From: an uncultured Muribaculaceae bacterium
Lineage (GTDB): Bacteria > Bacillota_I > Bacilli_A > RF39 > UBA660
Direction: 5' to 3'
Length of the DNA stretch: 64,000 nt
Assembly: GCA_964600615.1 (NCBI GenBank)
Contig: CAZRJK010000008.1
Span: forward strand, 32-64,031
The position numbers and the translations under genes are program-made. This document shows positions 1,621-37,757 of this stretch, piece after piece; position 1 is the first letter of the stretch; every line of letters starts with the position of its first letter. The notes below the pieces were generated by a model that saw nothing but the letters and a program-made list of their open reading frames with translations, did no database searches and was not told the DNA's origin.

Positions 1621-2814
1621 ATGAAGGATAGTAAGAAAATATTATATATAGTAGTATCTATAATAACTCTAATAATAACAATAACAGGTTCTACCTATGC
1701 ATACTTTGCCTTATCAACAAGTAATAATAATGCTATAACAGGTACAACTGCCGATGTAGGACTTACATTAACAGTAACTAAACTAAAACCCAATACTAAT
1801 ACTACTGATTACTTAGTACCCCAATTAGAAAGTGCTTTAGGAACTGCTATTAATAATACTAATAATTGTAAAGATGCTAATACCAATACAGTATGCCAAG
1901 TATATAAAGCAACACTAACTAATACAGGTACAGCTAATGCTAAACTAAAAGGAACTATAACATTTAATAACGTAAATAATCTTCCTAACTTAAAATGGAA
2001 ATTAATAACAGATGCTACAACACTAGGAAGTAATCCCACTAATAATGCTACATCTTCTAGTTCAACCTTTGTAGCAGAAGCTAATCTAAATCCTAACCAA
2101 TCTATAGATTATTACTTTGTCGTATGGATAAATGAAACAGGATCAGAACAATCAGATAATGGTTCTTATACAGGATCAATTACCTTCACCTCAGCCAATG
2201 GTACAGGAATAACCTCAACAATAGGAGCGGCTTATTCAGGAACCAAGTATACAGTAAACGTTCCAGATGATTGGGATAACTGGACAACATCAAATCTAAA
2301 ATTAGTATGGATAGGTAGTACTATACCAAGTGGAGTAACACAATATGATACACCAGCCCTAGCAATGTCAGCATTTAGTAATAAACCATTCTATTTAAAA
2401 CATACAATAGCAAACGATATAGTAACAGAAAGTTATGTAGAGTTTGTAGTAACACCAGAGATGGCATCAGCCAACTCAGGAATGACTGCCGGAACATACA
2501 CATTAAGAGGAGATAATATGTACGAATATGATGCTAACCAAGATGATTGGGTATGTAAAAGTGAATATGTTGATTCCAATACTGGAGATTGTATGACAAG
2601 TGCTTATTATACAAGCAATGTAAATGTATTAAAACAAGCCTTTGGAGAAAATAGTGGATATTGTACTGGTTTTACTAGTTCTTCCTACGTGAACTGCGAC
2701 GTGTCGGGGCTTAGCACGGGCGCCGATTCGTTTGGCAGCGTGGGCGCACACGATGACTCTGCGAACTGCTACGTGGAGAGTGATGGCGGTTCGTATTGCG
2801 GCAAGGAGGGGTAG
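1621..2814 (+). CDS. Secreted/surface protein with a TasA/camelysin-style (SipW-type) signal-anchor, an S/T/N/G-rich body and a Cys-paired C-terminal region
   Basis: N-terminus is K-rich, then a hydrophobic helix, then GSTYAYF (resembles the GGT(Y/F)AYF SipW-cognate signal motif). SD taggtaggtg lies upstream. The last 42 codons lie in the GC-rich island. Confidence 0.8.
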   Translation: MKDSKKILYIVVSIITLIITITGSTYAYFALSTSNNNAITGTTADVGLTLTVTKLKPNTNTTDYLVPQLESALGTAINNTNNCKDANTNTVCQVYKATLTNTGTANAKLKGTITFNNVNNLPNLKWKLITDATTLGSNPTNNATSSSSTFVAEANLNPNQSIDYYFVVWINETGSEQSDNGSYTGSITFTSANGTGITSTIGAAYSGTKYTVNVPDDWDNWTTSNLKLVWIGSTIPSGVTQYDTPALAMSAFSNKPFYLKHTIANDIVTESYVEFVVTPEMASANSGMTAGTYTLRGDNMYEYDANQDDWVCKSEYVDSNTGDCMTSAYYTSNVNVLKQAFGENSGYCTGFTSSSYVNCDVSGLSTGADSFGSVGAHDDSANCYVESDGGSYCGKEG

Positions 2815-2945
2815 CCCCGCTCTCGTGCTGTTGGGTCACCCAGCGAGGACCGGTGGGTCCATCTAGAAGTCTCAAGTCCTCATCCACTTGACGGAAGTCA
2901 AGTGGTAATGGTGCCGAACGAGTGACTACGAGTGTAGGCACGAGA
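2686..2945 (+). other. Abrupt GC-rich island (~60% G+C by hand count) covering the 3' end of the 1621 CDS plus ~130 nt of structured non-coding sequence
   Basis: 149 G+C in 2691-2940 versus 9/60 in 2941-3000. The coding part lacks Arg/Pro and keeps the Cys pattern, so it is recoded rather than random. The non-coding part contains strong helices. Confidence 0.9.
2884..2905 (+). other. Perfect 9-bp hairpin with GGAA (GNRA-type) tetraloop inside the GC-rich island
   Basis: ccacttgac-GGAA-gtcaagtgg read directly. It is enclosed by an 8-bp helix, tctcgtgc (2821-2828) / gcacgaga (2938-2945). Confidence 0.85.
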
Positions 2946-3226: not shown

Positions 3227-4114
3227 ATGTTTAAAGCTGTATTTTCTAATAATAAATATATATTATCTAAATTAGTAGAAGCTATACTTGATTATTATAA
3301 AATAGATTTAGATATTAAAGATAAGGAATTAATTATTAAGAATAATGAATTACCACTTGATAATTATCAAGATAAACAACTAATATGTGATTATATTATT
3401 AAGATTGATAAAAATACTGAAATAAATATAGAAGTTAATAGATCTAAATATATTGGAGTAACTGAAAGAAATTTAACTTATAGTTTTAAAATTTTTTATG
3501 ATCATTTTAAAAGTGGTGATAAATATGATAAGTTTAATAGATATACTTTATTGCAAATAAATTTTAATAATTATAGTAATCCTAATGGTAAAAATATAAA
3601 TAGATATTATATGATTGATATAGATGATATAGAAAATATGTTATCTAATAGTTATAGTTTAATGAATATAGATATTGCAAGTTGTTATAAATTAGTATAT
3701 AATAATGATAATTTGAAAGAAATATCTGATCTAGAGAAATGGTCTGCAATAATTGGTTGTGAATATTTAGAAGATATATCTTTTATATTAGAAAAAGGAT
3801 TGATATCTATGAATAAAGAAGAAAAAGAAAAGTTAATAAAAGAAATTAAAGAAAAAGCAAAAGATAAGGAAATATTAGAAGCTGTTAAATTAGAAAATAC
3901 TATGGAAGATCGCTTTAAAATGATTGAAGATTTGGCATTAGAAACTGGTTTACAGCAAGGAATTGAACAAGGAATTAAGCAAGGAATTGAACAAAAAACT
4001 GTTGAATTAATAATGAATATGATTGTAAACAATATAGATTATGATACTATATCTAAAATAACTTCTAAATCTATTGAAGAAATAAAAGAGATAGAAAAAT
4101 CTATTAAAGATTAA
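3227..4114 (+). CDS. Rpn/YhgA-like PD-(D/E)XK recombination-promoting nuclease (putative transposase family)
   Basis: (LSYNA)MFKAVFSNNKYILSKLVEAIL N-terminal motif, DYIIKIDKNTEINIEVNRS nuclease-core-like motif, and C-terminal GLQQGIEQGIKQGIEQ repeats typical of this family. The frame is open upstream to 3167, so an ATT/ATC start at 3188/3191 after the SD is possible. Confidence 0.75.
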   Translation: MFKAVFSNNKYILSKLVEAILDYYKIDLDIKDKELIIKNNELPLDNYQDKQLICDYIIKIDKNTEINIEVNRSKYIGVTERNLTYSFKIFYDHFKSGDKYDKFNRYTLLQINFNNYSNPNGKNINRYYMIDIDDIENMLSNSYSLMNIDIASCYKLVYNNDNLKEISDLEKWSAIIGCEYLEDISFILEKGLISMNKEEKEKLIKEIKEKAKDKEILEAVKLENTMEDRFKMIEDLALETGLQQGIEQGIKQGIEQKTVELIMNMIVNNIDYDTISKITSKSIEEIKEIEKSIKD

Positions 4115-7354: not shown

Positions 7355-8297
7355 ATTTTGTTAAGAAATTCATTACTAAATCTATTAGTATTTCTTTTTC
7401 TTTAGGATTAGATTGAGCTATTAATAAGGTTATTGCTACTAATGTATTATTATCAATTATTTGTTTATTATCTTTATATAGAATATTATAATAATTTAGA
7501 AAGTATATAAATAAAGTTGCTGCTATTCTTTTGTTACCATCTATAAAGACGTGGTTTTTAGTTATTAAATATAGAAAATTAGCTGCTTTTTCTTCTATAG
7601 TAGGGTATAAATCTTTGCTATCAAATGATTGATAGATAGTTTCTATTATTTCTTTTAATCCTTCATTTCTTTCTAGGGCAAATAATTTGCTTTGATTATT
7701 AAATTTTAATTTATTAATTATATTTAGACAATCTTCATATTTTATTTTGTTATCATTTTTTGTTCCTTTGGGATTAGTAATTATTTTGTGATCATAGTTA
7801 TCTAATAAATTTAGAGCATCTTTATAATTATTTATTACTTTAATTATATCTTGGGCTTCATTATTATTTAATTCGTTATCTATTCTTCCTGCTATATCTA
7901 TTAATTTAACTGTTTTTTCTAAATAATCTAATCTTTTTTGATTAATTGCATATCCTTTTAATAAGTAATCTTTTAGTACTTTGTTAGCCCATTTTCTAAA
8001 GACTATTCCATTTTTCGATTTAACACGGTAACCAATAGAAATAATCATATCTAAATTATAATATTCTATATTACGTTTTATCTCTCTTTTTCCTTCTTTT
8101 TGAACTGTTGCAAAAAATGCAACAGTTGAATTATCTAATTCTTCTTCTAATGCATTTTTAATATGTCTTGAGATTACTGATTTATCTCTATTAAATAGAT
8201 TACTCATTTGTTCTAATGATAACCATACTGTTTCATCTTTCATATTTACTTCTAATTTGATATTTTGATTTTCAAATAATATTATTTCATTTTTCAT
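7353..8297 (-). CDS. RhuM-like N-terminal domain fused to a Fic/Doc (death-on-curing) domain
   Basis: The N-terminal ~125 aa match the RhuM pattern (VWLSLEQMSNLF...YYNLDMIISIGYRVKS...FRKWANKVLKDYLLKGY). The C-terminus has the Fic/Doc motif HVFIDGNKRIAA. Confidence 0.8.
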   Translation of the reverse strand: MKNEIILFENQNIKLEVNMKDETVWLSLEQMSNLFNRDKSVISRHIKNALEEELDNSTVAFFATVQKEGKREIKRNIEYYNLDMIISIGYRVKSKNGIVFRKWANKVLKDYLLKGYAINQKRLDYLEKTVKLIDIAGRIDNELNNNEAQDIIKVINNYKDALNLLDNYDHKIITNPKGTKNDNKIKYEDCLNIINKLKFNNQSKLFALERNEGLKEIIETIYQSFDSKDLYPTIEEKAANFLYLITKNHVFIDGNKRIAATLFIYFLNYYNILYKDNKQIIDNNTLVAITLLIAQSNPKEKEILIDLVMNFLTK

Positions 8298-35422: not shown

Positions 35423-35473
35423 TGTTTTATTTTATTTGTGATGGTATAATTTATTTAGATATGAGGGATATAG

Positions 35474-36592
35474 ATGTTAGTTGGTATTTGTGAGAATCCT
35501 TTTGTTTTGAAAATTTTATTATTTATTGGGAAGCTTGTTAAGATTTGTTATTTGGTTATTCCTATTGGATTAGTAATTTTTTTTAGTTTTGATTTTTTTA
35601 AAGGAATTATTAATCAGGAAGAAGCTGATAAACAAATTGTTTTTTCATTGAAAAAAATAATTAATGTTGTTGCTTTGTTTTTGGTTCCTACATTTGTTAG
35701 TATTTTTATGAAATTTATTAGTAATATAGAATTTTTAGATATTAATTATAAAACTTGTTTAGCTAATACTTCTAATATTACTTATTATGAGGAAAAGTAT
35801 GAATCTTTAATTAAATTAGAAGAAGAAAAAAGAGCAGAAGAAATAGAAAAGCAATTAGCCGATTATGAGTATTATAAAACACTTGATAGAAGGAAAAAAA
35901 TGTTTGTTAAATATAATGAGAAGAAAGATAACAATGGTGGAAATAATACTGGAGGCAATACTTATGATCCTAGTGCTGTTTTTACTGGACAAACATATAG
36001 TTTAAGTGCTGATGAATTAAAAAACATAACTGCTGTATGTATTGGTGAACAGGGAGCATATGTTGATGGTGTTTCTTCGGAAGCTTCTTTTATGGCTAAT
36101 ACTTATGAAGCTAAATATTCTAATAAATTTTCAACGATTTCAAGCTGGGTACTTGATACTGGGGATGGACATTATTTTGATACTCGTTCTTATGAAAATG
36201 GTTTACCCCAAGTTACTGATGAGTTGATTAATGCGGTTAAAGAAGTTTTAGTTAATGGTAATAGGACTTTACCTTTATATGTTGATGATCATGATTGTTG
36301 GTTTTGTTCTGATCATTATGATAGGAATCATAATCCACTTTATTGCCATAATGGTAATAAGGGTGATATATGTTATTTAAATAATGGTGGTTCTGATTTA
36401 TCTAGTAAGGATGAGATTACTAATAGAGATAATTATATAAAGGATAAGACTAAAATATATACTTATTATAAGCAAGATCATAGTGATGATTTGGATAAGT
36501 ACTTTATTTTTTATGCTTGGGCTAGACCTACTACGAAGGGTGGGGATCCTTTTGGGTATACTGAAGATACTTATAAGCGTATAAATGGTTAG
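35474..36592 (+). CDS. Membrane protein: conserved N-terminal 2-TM module + coiled linker + Cys/His-rich C-terminal domain (paralog A)
   Basis: Same N-terminal module as the 24195 product. The C-terminal domain has GEQG...EASFMANTYE and LVNGNRTLPLYVDDHDCWFC motifs shared with paralog B. Confidence 0.8.
   Translation: MLVGICENPFVLKILLFIGKLVKICYLVIPIGLVIFFSFDFFKGIINQEEADKQIVFSLKKIINVVALFLVPTFVSIFMKFISNIEFLDINYKTCLANTSNITYYEEKYESLIKLEEEKRAEEIEKQLADYEYYKTLDRRKKMFVKYNEKKDNNGGNNTGGNTYDPSAVFTGQTYSLSADELKNITAVCIGEQGAYVDGVSSEASFMANTYEAKYSNKFSTISSWVLDTGDGHYFDTRSYENGLPQVTDELINAVKEVLVNGNRTLPLYVDDHDCWFCSDHYDRNHNPLYCHNGNKGDICYLNNGGSDLSSKDEITNRDNYIKDKTKIYTYYKQDHSDDLDKYFIFYAWARPTTKGGDPFGYTEDTYKRING
35822..35986 (+). 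repeat. Near-identical block shared with 37009-37173 (linker region of the tandem paralogs)
   Basis: Hand alignment gives roughly 155/165 identical, including a 68-nt perfect run (gattatgagtattataaaacacttgatagaaggaaaaaaatgtttgttaaatataatgagaagaaaga). The flanking parts of the genes are clearly more diverged. Confidence 0.85.
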
Positions 36593-36656
36593 TATAGTTT
36601 TTGTTTAAATTTTTTTAATTGTGTGTTATAATTTTTTTGGATAGTGAGGGATAAAT

Positions 36657-37757
36657 ATGATTGTTGGTGCTTGTGAAAATCCTTTTGTTTTAAAGATTTT
36701 GTTATTTATGGGAAAAATTGTTGAGGTTTGTTATTTGATTATTCCTATTGGTTTGATTCTTTTTATGAGTATTGATTTTTTTAAGGCAATTATTAATAAA
36801 GAAGAAGAAGGAACTAAGAATGTTATTTTTTCTTTTAAGAGAATTGTTAACGTTGTTGCTTTATTTTTGGTTCCTACTTTTATAAGCTTTTTTATGGATT
36901 TTGTTAGTAATTTAGATTTGTTTAATGGAGATTATGCTTCTTGTTTAGCTAATACTTCTAGTGTTACTTATTATCAAGAGAAGTATGATGCCTTGGTTAA
37001 ACAAGAGGAAGAAAAAAGAGCAAAAGAGATAGAAAAGCAATTAGCTGATTATGAGTATTATAAAACACTTGATAGAAGGAAAAAAATGTTTGTTAAATAT
37101 AATGAGAAGAAAGACAACGATGGTGGCAATAATACTGGAGGCAATACTTATAATCCTGATGCTGTTTTTACGGGCCAAACTTATAATTTAACTGATGAAC
37201 AGGTAAAGAGATTAGCTGCTATATGTTATGGTGAAAAAGGAAATAATGTAAAGGCAGTAGCTGCAGAGGCTACAATGATGGCCAATATATACGAGGATCG
37301 TGGGAATAAGAATTATTCTTTATATGATTGGGCTCTTCTACCAGTTGGCGATGGTGGTTGGTATGCTTCAAGCAGTAGGGATAGTAGTAATATAGCTAAA
37401 GTTACTGATGAGTTATTTAATGCGGTTAAAGATGTTTTAGTTAATGGTAATAGGACTTTGCCTTTATATATAGATGATCATGATTGTTTGTTTTGCGATG
37501 ATTCCACTTGTTCAAATGGTAATAGGGGCGATGTATGTTATTTAGATACTAATGGGACTATTTTTTCTGATGAATCTCAATTAAAGGATAGATATAATTC
37601 AACTATCTATATTCCTAATAAGACAAAAGTATATACTCTTAGTAAGTTGAGAAATAGTGTTGCTAGTGAGCGATATTTTGTATTTTATACTTTTGTATCT
37701 GATAATAGTGGTCCTGTTGGGTATACTGAGAAGAGTTATAAAAGAGTAAATGGTTAG
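36657..37757 (+). CDS. Membrane protein, tandem paralog B of the 35474 gene
   Basis: Collinear with paralog A over its whole length; similar promoter/SD context (tataat...gtgagggata). Confidence 0.8.
   Translation: MIVGACENPFVLKILLFMGKIVEVCYLIIPIGLILFMSIDFFKAIINKEEEGTKNVIFSFKRIVNVVALFLVPTFISFFMDFVSNLDLFNGDYASCLANTSSVTYYQEKYDALVKQEEEKRAKEIEKQLADYEYYKTLDRRKKMFVKYNEKKDNDGGNNTGGNTYNPDAVFTGQTYNLTDEQVKRLAAICYGEKGNNVKAVAAEATMMANIYEDRGNKNYSLYDWALLPVGDGGWYASSSRDSSNIAKVTDELFNAVKDVLVNGNRTLPLYIDDHDCLFCDDSTCSNGNRGDVCYLDTNGTIFSDESQLKDRYNSTIYIPNKTKVYTLSKLRNSVASERYFVFYTFVSDNSGPVGYTEKSYKRVNG
37009..37173 (+). repeat. Second copy of the near-identical paralog block (see 35822-35986)
   Basis: Direct comparison of the two gene sequences. 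Confidence 0.85.

Follow-up and report, generated by a model that had tools for sequence, protein, structure and literature searches.

The described systems closest to the locus reported here are the diversity-generating retroelement (DGR) of Bordetella phage BPP-1, the DGRs with non-adjacent targets exemplified by Treponema denticola, and those carrying a MutS-like gene. The phage-borne DGR of BPP-1, whose target gene is mtd, shares with our locus and its relatives the location of the variable repeat (VR), which forms the 3' end of the target open reading frame (ORF), adenine-specific changes, a G+C-rich end of the homology between the VR and the template repeat (TR), and a downstream inverted repeat with a 4-nt GRNA loop that marks the recipient copy (PMC3240598). 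The stem of this target hairpin or cruciform has 7-10 bp, its GRNA loop is found on the sense strand, and its distance from the VR is 4-34 bp (PMC3240598). In T. denticola one cassette serves several scattered paralogous secreted or surface proteins (TvpA), and remote targets are associated with DGRs that are not phage-borne; a MutS-like accessory gene has also been described in DGRs (PMC5758913). Here we analyse a G+C-rich island at positions 2686-2945 of a stretch of 64,000 nucleotides of contig CAZRJK010000008.1 from an uncultured bacterium, the whole of which is called the window below. The island begins within ORF 1621-2814 and continues beyond its stop codon, and it is very probably the recipient end, i.e. 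the VR and its recognition sequence, of a DGR acting on a gene for a secreted protein, with the cassette located elsewhere.

Composition of the island

The G+C content of the island is 59.2%, while the window averages 27.1%. Both borders are as sharp as the original prediction had described them, the adjoining 60 nt having 33% G+C on the 5' side and 13% on the 3' side. A recount of positions 2691-2940 gave exactly the 149 G+C counted earlier, and the island is indeed unique in the window, no other 100-nt stretch of the 64 kb exceeding 49% G+C. Neither repeat search nor BLAST found a second copy of it within the window. Since the same island with the same borders is present in contigs from four other samples (L025, L026, L027 and L029), it is not an assembly artefact, and many relatives have homologous islands that continue the reading frame of homologous genes.

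The first 129 nt belong to ORF 1621-2814, whose product ends in VNCDVSGLSTGADSFGSVGAHDDSANCYVESDGGSYCGKEG before the stop codon TAG (2812-2814) and, as stated before, contains neither Arg nor Pro in this part. The claim that the gene end is recoded was borne out by the third codon positions, of which 2% are A in 2686-2811 and 45% in the rest of the gene; the full distribution in the island is 2% A, 43% C, 33% G and 21% T. The codon repeat gNg-aac-tgc-Nac-gtg was also recovered at 2689-2703 and 2761-2775. Beyond the stop codon the non-coding tail is rich in helices, again as first described, with hairpins at 2847-2860, 2884-2905 and 2911-2941, and the whole island folds with z = -2.7 on the + strand. 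No Rfam covariance model matched the island at gathering thresholds or at E up to 10, and no match to it was found in phage records.

The variable repeat

The VR (about 2679-2814, + strand) comprises the last 45 codons of the ORF, i.e. it is situated at the 3' end of a coding gene. It was delimited by its codon signature, by the hypervariability of its homologues and by the pairing of homologous VRs with TRs. Its scaffold codons are free of adenine (GTG, TGC, TCG, GGG, GGC, GCC) and alternate with variable NNY codons. At the protein level, fourteen homologues have the invariant scaffold C..V.SGL.A.A..G.V.A..SA.C.V..G.S.C over the last ~45 residues, and between the scaffold residues every second position is hypervariable (N, D, S, Y, H, R, G, F, L, I and others). 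The variable codons are NNC or NNT in the window, L028, L001, L005 and L007, where the scaffold codons likewise lack adenine; exceptions to the NNY rule are GAG in the window and GAA and TTT in L007. This combination of AAY-derived NNY codons with invariant codons free of A constitutes the codon signature of adenine mutagenesis, and it is the pattern to be expected if AAY codons of a template were randomised at their adenines. The divergent paralogues P0002, P0003, P0004 and P0009, with a nucleotide identity of 82-88% between their gene bodies, were also found to have a common VR scaffold, which is expected if one TR serves several targets.

Complete cassettes in relatives

A scan of species-representative genomes gave loci of metagenome-assembled genomes (MAGs) of uncultured Bacilli and Erysipelotrichaceae from ruminant guts. 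Four relatives contain complete cassettes in the homologous order target, VR, module, TR, bAvd and reverse transcriptase (RT), namely L021 and three (L030, L032 and L034) that came from four RT homologues that were looked up. In L021 the target gene (701-1876) is followed by the VR, a conserved non-coding module, the TR at 2123-2269 (NFECNVSGLNANANTNGNVNANDDASANCNVNNDGNSNCNE), a bAvd-like ORF (bAvd Pfam E 2.5e-8) and the RT (RVT_1 E 5e-13, with YMDD and GNQTSQ motifs), and the 5' limit of the TR homology is ATTCTTCC. The TR sequences in the relatives' cassettes read ...NVSGLNANANTNGNVNAN....

Mismatches between TR and VR were measured in three of the four cassettes and fall almost without exception on TR adenines: 22 of 24 in L021, 29 of 29 in L030 and 24 of 27 in L032. 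In all four, the identity of TR and VR passes the stop codon and ends in ..CCCAG, ..GGCCC or ..CCCAGC. The TRs of the three measured cassettes have 43-50% G+C, the non-adenine bases of these TRs 61-71% and the VRs 55-60%, a range into which the 59% of the window island falls. Relatives without the module have an eroded G+C content, 41-43% in L015-L017 and 33% in L020, which has an ordinary terminator. The four cassettes are canonical DGRs of the TR-avd-RT type, some of them with the known MutS-like accessory gene. The gene order of the relatives, target-VR-TR-avd-RT, differs from avd-TR-brt in BPP-1.

As to the accessory gene, an ORF with a MutS_I domain overlaps the RT stop codon in L030 (5143-5544) and L034 (5145-5561), the proteins P0172, P0207 and P0231 belong to the same group, and some RT homologues are fused to MutS_I. 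This arrangement is like that of the MSL/MutS_I DGRs (Architecture D, PMC5758913; Legionella DGR), while L021 and L032 lack a MutS_I gene and in this respect are unlike them, as is the window, which contains no MutS-like gene.

The family contains further arrangements. In L010 (6489-9749) at least three paralogous target genes stand in tandem, the third being cut by the contig end, and both complete copies have their own diversified VR and recognition module. Homologous genes in L017 (10511-10640) and L014 (about 7577-7690) end in a 3' flank of the TR/spacer type (cccagattttcctaaatactag...) and not in the VR-type module; no Avd or RT was found downstream of the gene end in L017. Such gene ends suggest that donor-type and recipient-type flanks may have been exchanged during the evolution of the family.

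The predicted homology end and the putative recognition module

The stop codon is followed by a G+C-rich segment (2815-2843, + strand) similar to the initiation of mutagenic homing (IMH) sequence of DGRs. It ends in CCCAG, which from the TR/VR ends of L021, L030, L032 and L034 is the predicted 3' limit of the TR homology, and this IMH-like region is about 20 nt longer in the window than in L001, L005 and L007. Next to it is a conserved structured module (2844-2945, + strand), recognised from alignment and covariation as the putative mark of a recipient. At least 12 distinct loci whose neighbours are unrelated (the window, L001/L004, L005, L007, L010 twice, L011, L013, L018, L019, L021, L030, L032 and L034) have the tail as a whole (2815-2945) conserved behind a VR, and it never occurs after a TR.

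Four parts can be distinguished in the module, all given here on the + strand. Hairpin A (2847-2860; GGACC-GGTG-GGTCC) is restricted to the clade of the window, where it is also found in L001, L004, L005 and L007, and it is absent from L021 and from the L010 type. A spacer (2860-2883) follows with the motifs ATCT..(A/G)TCT..ATCC, which form invariant columns of the alignment and are also present in L030, L032 and L034. Hairpin B (2884-2905; CCACTTGAC-GGAA-GTCAAGTGG) combines a stem of 9 bp with a 4-nt GRNA loop, so that a G+C-rich IMH-like segment is followed by an inverted repeat with such a loop. Compensatory changes were detected at four of its stem pairs by RNAalifold, and at least five different stem sequences occur across the loci. 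By analogy, hairpin B fits the role of counterpart to the target hairpin or cruciform of known DGRs. It begins 41 nt past the predicted homology end; the insertion of hairpin A between the two places it slightly outside the published range of 4-34 bp.

The module closes with the terminal hairpin T (2911-2941; GUGCC-GA-AC-GA-GU-loop-AC-GA-GU-GUA-GGCAC), which is characterised by conserved purine-rich internal loops. Its closing helix is 96% paired with one covarying pair (CG, UA, GC), compensatory changes occur in the inner pairs, and the GA/GA and GUA segments are invariant. Hairpin T stands at every VR with a downstream module and is absent after TRs. We know of no description of a second hairpin of this kind in a DGR.

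Two further observations concern the module. The segments TCTCGTGC (2821-2828) and GCACGAGA (2938-2945) are perfect complements which bracket the whole recognition module; the former lies within the 20-nt insertion found only in the IMH region of the window, and the latter overlaps the closing helix of hairpin T. The loop of hairpin B is GTAA in L001-L003 (11199-11202 in L001) and the reverse complement, TTAC, in L004 (1315-1318) and L007, and between L001 and L004 the stem and the compared 154 nt (module and last VR codons) are otherwise unchanged. This looks like an inversion of the loop at a DNA hairpin or cruciform. A loop change from GAAA to CTTT in BPP-1 nearly abolished homing (PMC3240598), and by analogy the inversion might be an off-switch for a target. 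The module may act as DNA or as RNA; nearly all of its pairs are Watson-Crick, it is positioned upstream of terminators in L005 and L007, and the loop inversion points to a hairpin at the DNA level.

Origin of the island

At the gene end in the window we find the anatomy and codon signature of a DGR recipient, homology to the VRs of complete cassettes, and a module that is conserved and covaries. From this we infer that the TR from which the window VR was written is located beyond the window. Among the candidates of the original prediction, a VR or target-recognition end of a DGR with a remote cassette turned out to be right in nearly every detail, as seen from the TR-bAvd-RT cassettes of the relatives, the mismatches at adenines, the IMH-like segment ending in CCCAG and the 9-bp hairpin with its GGAA loop; that the cassette lies elsewhere agrees with the lack of an RT, an Avd or a TR in the window.

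The cassette would supply a TR RNA, the bAvd protein, the RT and sometimes a MutS-like protein. The RT would copy the TR into complementary DNA (cDNA), misincorporating opposite template adenines, and the mutagenised cDNA would take the place of the VR in which the target gene ends. In the window, the G+C-rich stretch to CCCAG (2843) would be the IMH-type end of the TR homology, and the structured tail (2844-2945) would mark the copy as recipient, not donor. The composition of the island would then be inherited from the TR and not moulded by the A+T mutational bias of the host: an adenine in the scaffold would be subject to mutagenesis, for which reason scaffold codons would be free of it, adenines would be confined to the first two positions of AAY codons, and the replacement of A by N would raise the G+C content by about 10 points. 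The 5' border, at about 2679-2686, would correspond to the start of the TR homology and the 3' border to the end of the module.

A number of results weigh against this explanation. No RT, Avd or MutS-like gene was found in the 64-kb window by motif scan or by tblastn with the relatives' proteins, nor was a TR found there by repeat search or BLAST. Searches of viral, metagenome and genome collections with degenerate VR/TR patterns, the IMH 21-mer and the module core did not give a cognate TR, and a TR-peptide profile run against the protein database retrieved real TR-encoded ORFs (P0241-P0247), none of which has the scaffold of the window. The scaffold and IMH of the window differ from those of P0002, P0003, P0004 and P0009 by ~10 non-adenine differences and the 20-nt insertion. 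Six near-identical sources of the gene (the window, L025, L026, L027, L029 and the cluster member P0249) do not differ in their VR, which gives no direct sign of ongoing diversification, and the fold around it is not recognisable as one of the C-type-lectin or formylglycine-generating enzyme (FGE) type.

Some of the P0002, P0003, P0004 and P0009 genes come from the same samples as the window gene, and the non-adenine differences together with the insertion imply that the TR serving these paralogues is not the donor of the window VR. The TRs of L030, L032 and L034 were considered as its template and rejected, none of them fitting the window VR. A paralogue of the target gene is likewise absent from the 64-kb window. 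The six sources differ from one another only by a small patch in the N-terminal domain, a different signal peptide or homopolymer length, and the absence of VR variants among them is a weak test of ongoing diversification, since they represent nearly one strain. That the VR may still be served by a cassette, or was served until recently, is favoured by its composition, which has not decayed, and by the intact hairpin with the GGAA loop.

Beside the VR of P0003 a VR-like non-coding copy was found (L001 11398-11591, L004 1514-1707), 190 nt after that VR and followed by a PDDEXK_2 gene. It has a 5' flank of the TR type (attgggttattctg..aagg), and most of its adenine codons are replaced. We examined it as a working TR and rejected it, for it differs from the VR at other bases as well as at its adenines and is not followed by an Avd or RT gene; most likely it is the relic of a TR.

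Alternative explanations

A sub-case of the DGR explanation, with the same origin, is that the island is a fossil VR, written by a DGR whose cassette has been lost or is out of reach. We regard this as possible, though less likely than not. There is no cassette within 61 kb downstream or 2.6 kb upstream, the VR is the same in all six sources of the near-identical gene, its scaffold and IMH are unlike those of co-occurring paralogues, and the sister locus L001/L004 contains a TR relic without an RT and has PDDEXK_2 in the place of Avd and RT; all this speaks for a fossil. However, the G+C content is still 59% in a genome of 27%, equal to that of VRs in complete cassettes, whereas clearly decayed copies have 33-43% and have lost the module, and hairpin B retains the consensus GGAA loop. 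The identity of the VRs is little informative, as the assemblies represent almost one strain (one small patch and homopolymer length apart), and targets at a distance of more than 100 kb from the RT are documented (PMC5758913). The other explanations depart from a DGR origin of all or part of the island. That the tail (2815-2945) is an independent structured RNA, e.g. a stability or regulatory element of the 3' untranslated region (UTR) unrelated to DGR targeting, is unlikely. The structured RNA of the original prediction is subsumed under the DGR explanation, the tail being a recognition module that flanks VRs and not TRs: it is present only directly after VRs and is lost upon VR decay, it has no match in Rfam, and its hairpin B fits the published DNA hairpin of DGRs (PMC3240598). 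The helices do covary, a single G-U pair is seen on the + strand of L007, and the purine-rich internal loops are, in our own reading, reminiscent of RNA motifs; in L005 and L007 the tail lies upstream of intrinsic terminators and would hence be transcribed with the mRNA. Nevertheless, nearly all pairs are Watson-Crick on both strands, with which a DNA hairpin or cruciform is equally compatible, and the change from GTAA to TTAC between L001 and L004 points to a hairpin at the DNA level.

It is very improbable that the island is a patch from a high-G+C donor, or that it arose by gene conversion with silent cassettes as the source and the neighbouring PDDEXK_2 (Rpn-like) gene as the promoting factor. 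Paralogues of this gene do flank the target genes in the window, L004, L005, L007 and L028, the target paralogues are mosaic in their N-terminal parts, and the VR-like non-coding copy beside P0003 could be taken for a silent cassette. Against this, variable codons that are exclusively NNY in an A-free scaffold indicate adenine mutagenesis and not shuffling of cassettes, complete DGR cassettes have no PDDEXK_2 gene, no phage record matches the island, and TR-to-VR conversion accounts quantitatively for the composition. The high-GC patch proposed originally is thus not needed, retrohoming from TR to VR with adenine mutagenesis being sufficient. An assembly chimera, also among the earlier candidates, would explain the sharp borders, the one observation that speaks for it, but can be excluded for all practical purposes: the junctions are identical in contigs assembled independently from four other samples, and in many genomes homologous islands share the reading frame of homologous genes. 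Our preferred explanation of the island remains the recipient end of a DGR with a remote cassette.

The target protein and its C-terminal domain

The putative DGR target gene (1621-2814, + strand) encodes a protein of 397 aa, delineated by the ORF, by full-length homologues (P0001-P0011, P0080 and P0103) and by an AlphaFold model. A search of the protein database gave 402 relatives, 13 of them full-length enough for alignment with the window protein. The protein consists of an N-terminal hydrophobic signal with the sequence GSTYAYF, a beta-sandwich middle part and the C-terminal domain that bears the VR. No match to the protein was found in Pfam or NCBIfam. GSTYAYF may resemble the signal peptides of the SipW/TasA type, for which NCBIfam gave no match.

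The C-terminal domain (171 aa, 2299-2814, + strand) was modelled by AlphaFold 2 (AF2) with a pLDDT of 92.5 and a pTM of 0.86. In this model the VR makes up the last five beta-strands, and four invariant cysteines are located around the VR, three of them inside it. The domain family comprises 221 representative clusters among 1.84 billion, and in full-length matches the domain reaches the C-terminus. Foldseek comparison of the domain model with the PDB gave nothing significant (best E 0.09, probability 0.14), with no lectin-fold entry among the top 50 matches, although very divergent C-type-lectin variants may be missed by Foldseek. There was also no match in BFVD by Foldseek or in PDB sequences by profile search. 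With the whole protein, Foldseek matched only generic beta-sandwiches, for the N-terminal part.

According to large surveys, annotated VRs lie in C-type-lectin folds (PMC8144416), and some exceptions have been suggested by a later study (PMC11661182). Judged from the model, the variable domain of the window may be an exception to the C-type-lectin rule or a very divergent lectin variant.

Variation in the target gene was also seen outside the VR. The near-identical variants P0249, P0250, P0251 and L029, compared with the window over 1621-2300, have identical VRs and differ by whole patches in the signal peptide or N-terminal domain (the patch in L029 corresponds to window 1960-1983), and P0005 and P0008 have a common VR but not the same middle domain, which shows that segments are exchanged among the paralogues by recombination. 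In the promoter region of the target gene, a run of 18 T (1560-1577) lies directly upstream of CAGTATAAT. This tract before the TATAAT of the gene is T18 in the window, T17 in L026 and T16 in L029, in an otherwise near-identical context, and a similar long T tract is found upstream of the target gene in L030. The tract is a candidate for a phase-variable promoter or for a homopolymer error of assembly.

Neighbouring genes

In the clade of the window every target gene is adjoined, upstream or downstream, by a PDDEXK_2 (Rpn/YhgA-like) paralogue, and these have 32-49% mutual identity. They are located at 3227-4114 in the window, 1816-2736 in L004, 3-644 in L005, 2-733 in L007 and 3-287 in L028; the copy in L025 is called as two shorter ORFs, and the gene is absent from complete DGR cassettes. 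The flanking PDDEXK_2 nucleases, like the loop inversion in hairpin B, could be modulators of the DGR.

At 35462-37568 of the window a pair of paralogous genes (35474-36592 and 36657-37757) lies side by side, with long stretches of 79-90% identity. This pair is unrelated to the family of DGR target genes.

Comparison with known systems and significance

Compared with the phage-borne DGR of BPP-1, the element described here is chromosomal and has no match in phage or viral collections. Its recognition region is also longer, about 100 nt with two or three hairpins instead of 24-35 bp, and the stem of hairpin B, unlike that in BPP-1, is not especially G+C-rich and is even A+T-rich in the L010 type. 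The variable domain has no match to the C-type-lectin fold of Mtd, and differs in the same way from TvpA of T. denticola, which has that fold. The resemblance to T. denticola lies in the arrangement: the window VR would be a non-adjacent copy, targeted in trans, of a system in which one cassette serves several scattered paralogues.

The DGR system as such and its MutS-like gene are already known; what could be new are the variable domain without a lectin-fold match and the module with an extra hairpin. We suggest, tentatively, that this lineage of chromosomal DGRs in uncultured Bacilli of the ruminant gut differs from described DGRs in two ways at once, by a scaffold that is not a C-type lectin and by a two-hairpin recognition module of about 100 nt. 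On the evidence of the model, the scaffold may be a cysteine-containing beta-meander of five strands whose alternating residues form one hypervariable face. The longer module may combine the GRNA hairpin with the GUGCC..GA/GA..GUA..GGCAC hairpin, in place of the single hairpin of BPP-1.

With the DGR explanation, neither foreign DNA nor a new RNA gene has to be assumed to account for a striking anomaly of composition. The explanation further provides a rule for the annotation of A+T-rich genomes, namely that a sharply bounded G+C-rich gene end with third positions free of A and a GRNA hairpin is the VR of a DGR, and this rule holds even when the reverse transcriptase is distant. The variable domain, modelled with high confidence and yet without a C-type-lectin match, stands in contrast to the surveys (PMC8144416). 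For the step by which the cDNA of a DGR locates and enters its target, which is not yet understood, the conserved and covarying 100-nt module that lies beside every VR and never beside a TR offers a defined object of study.

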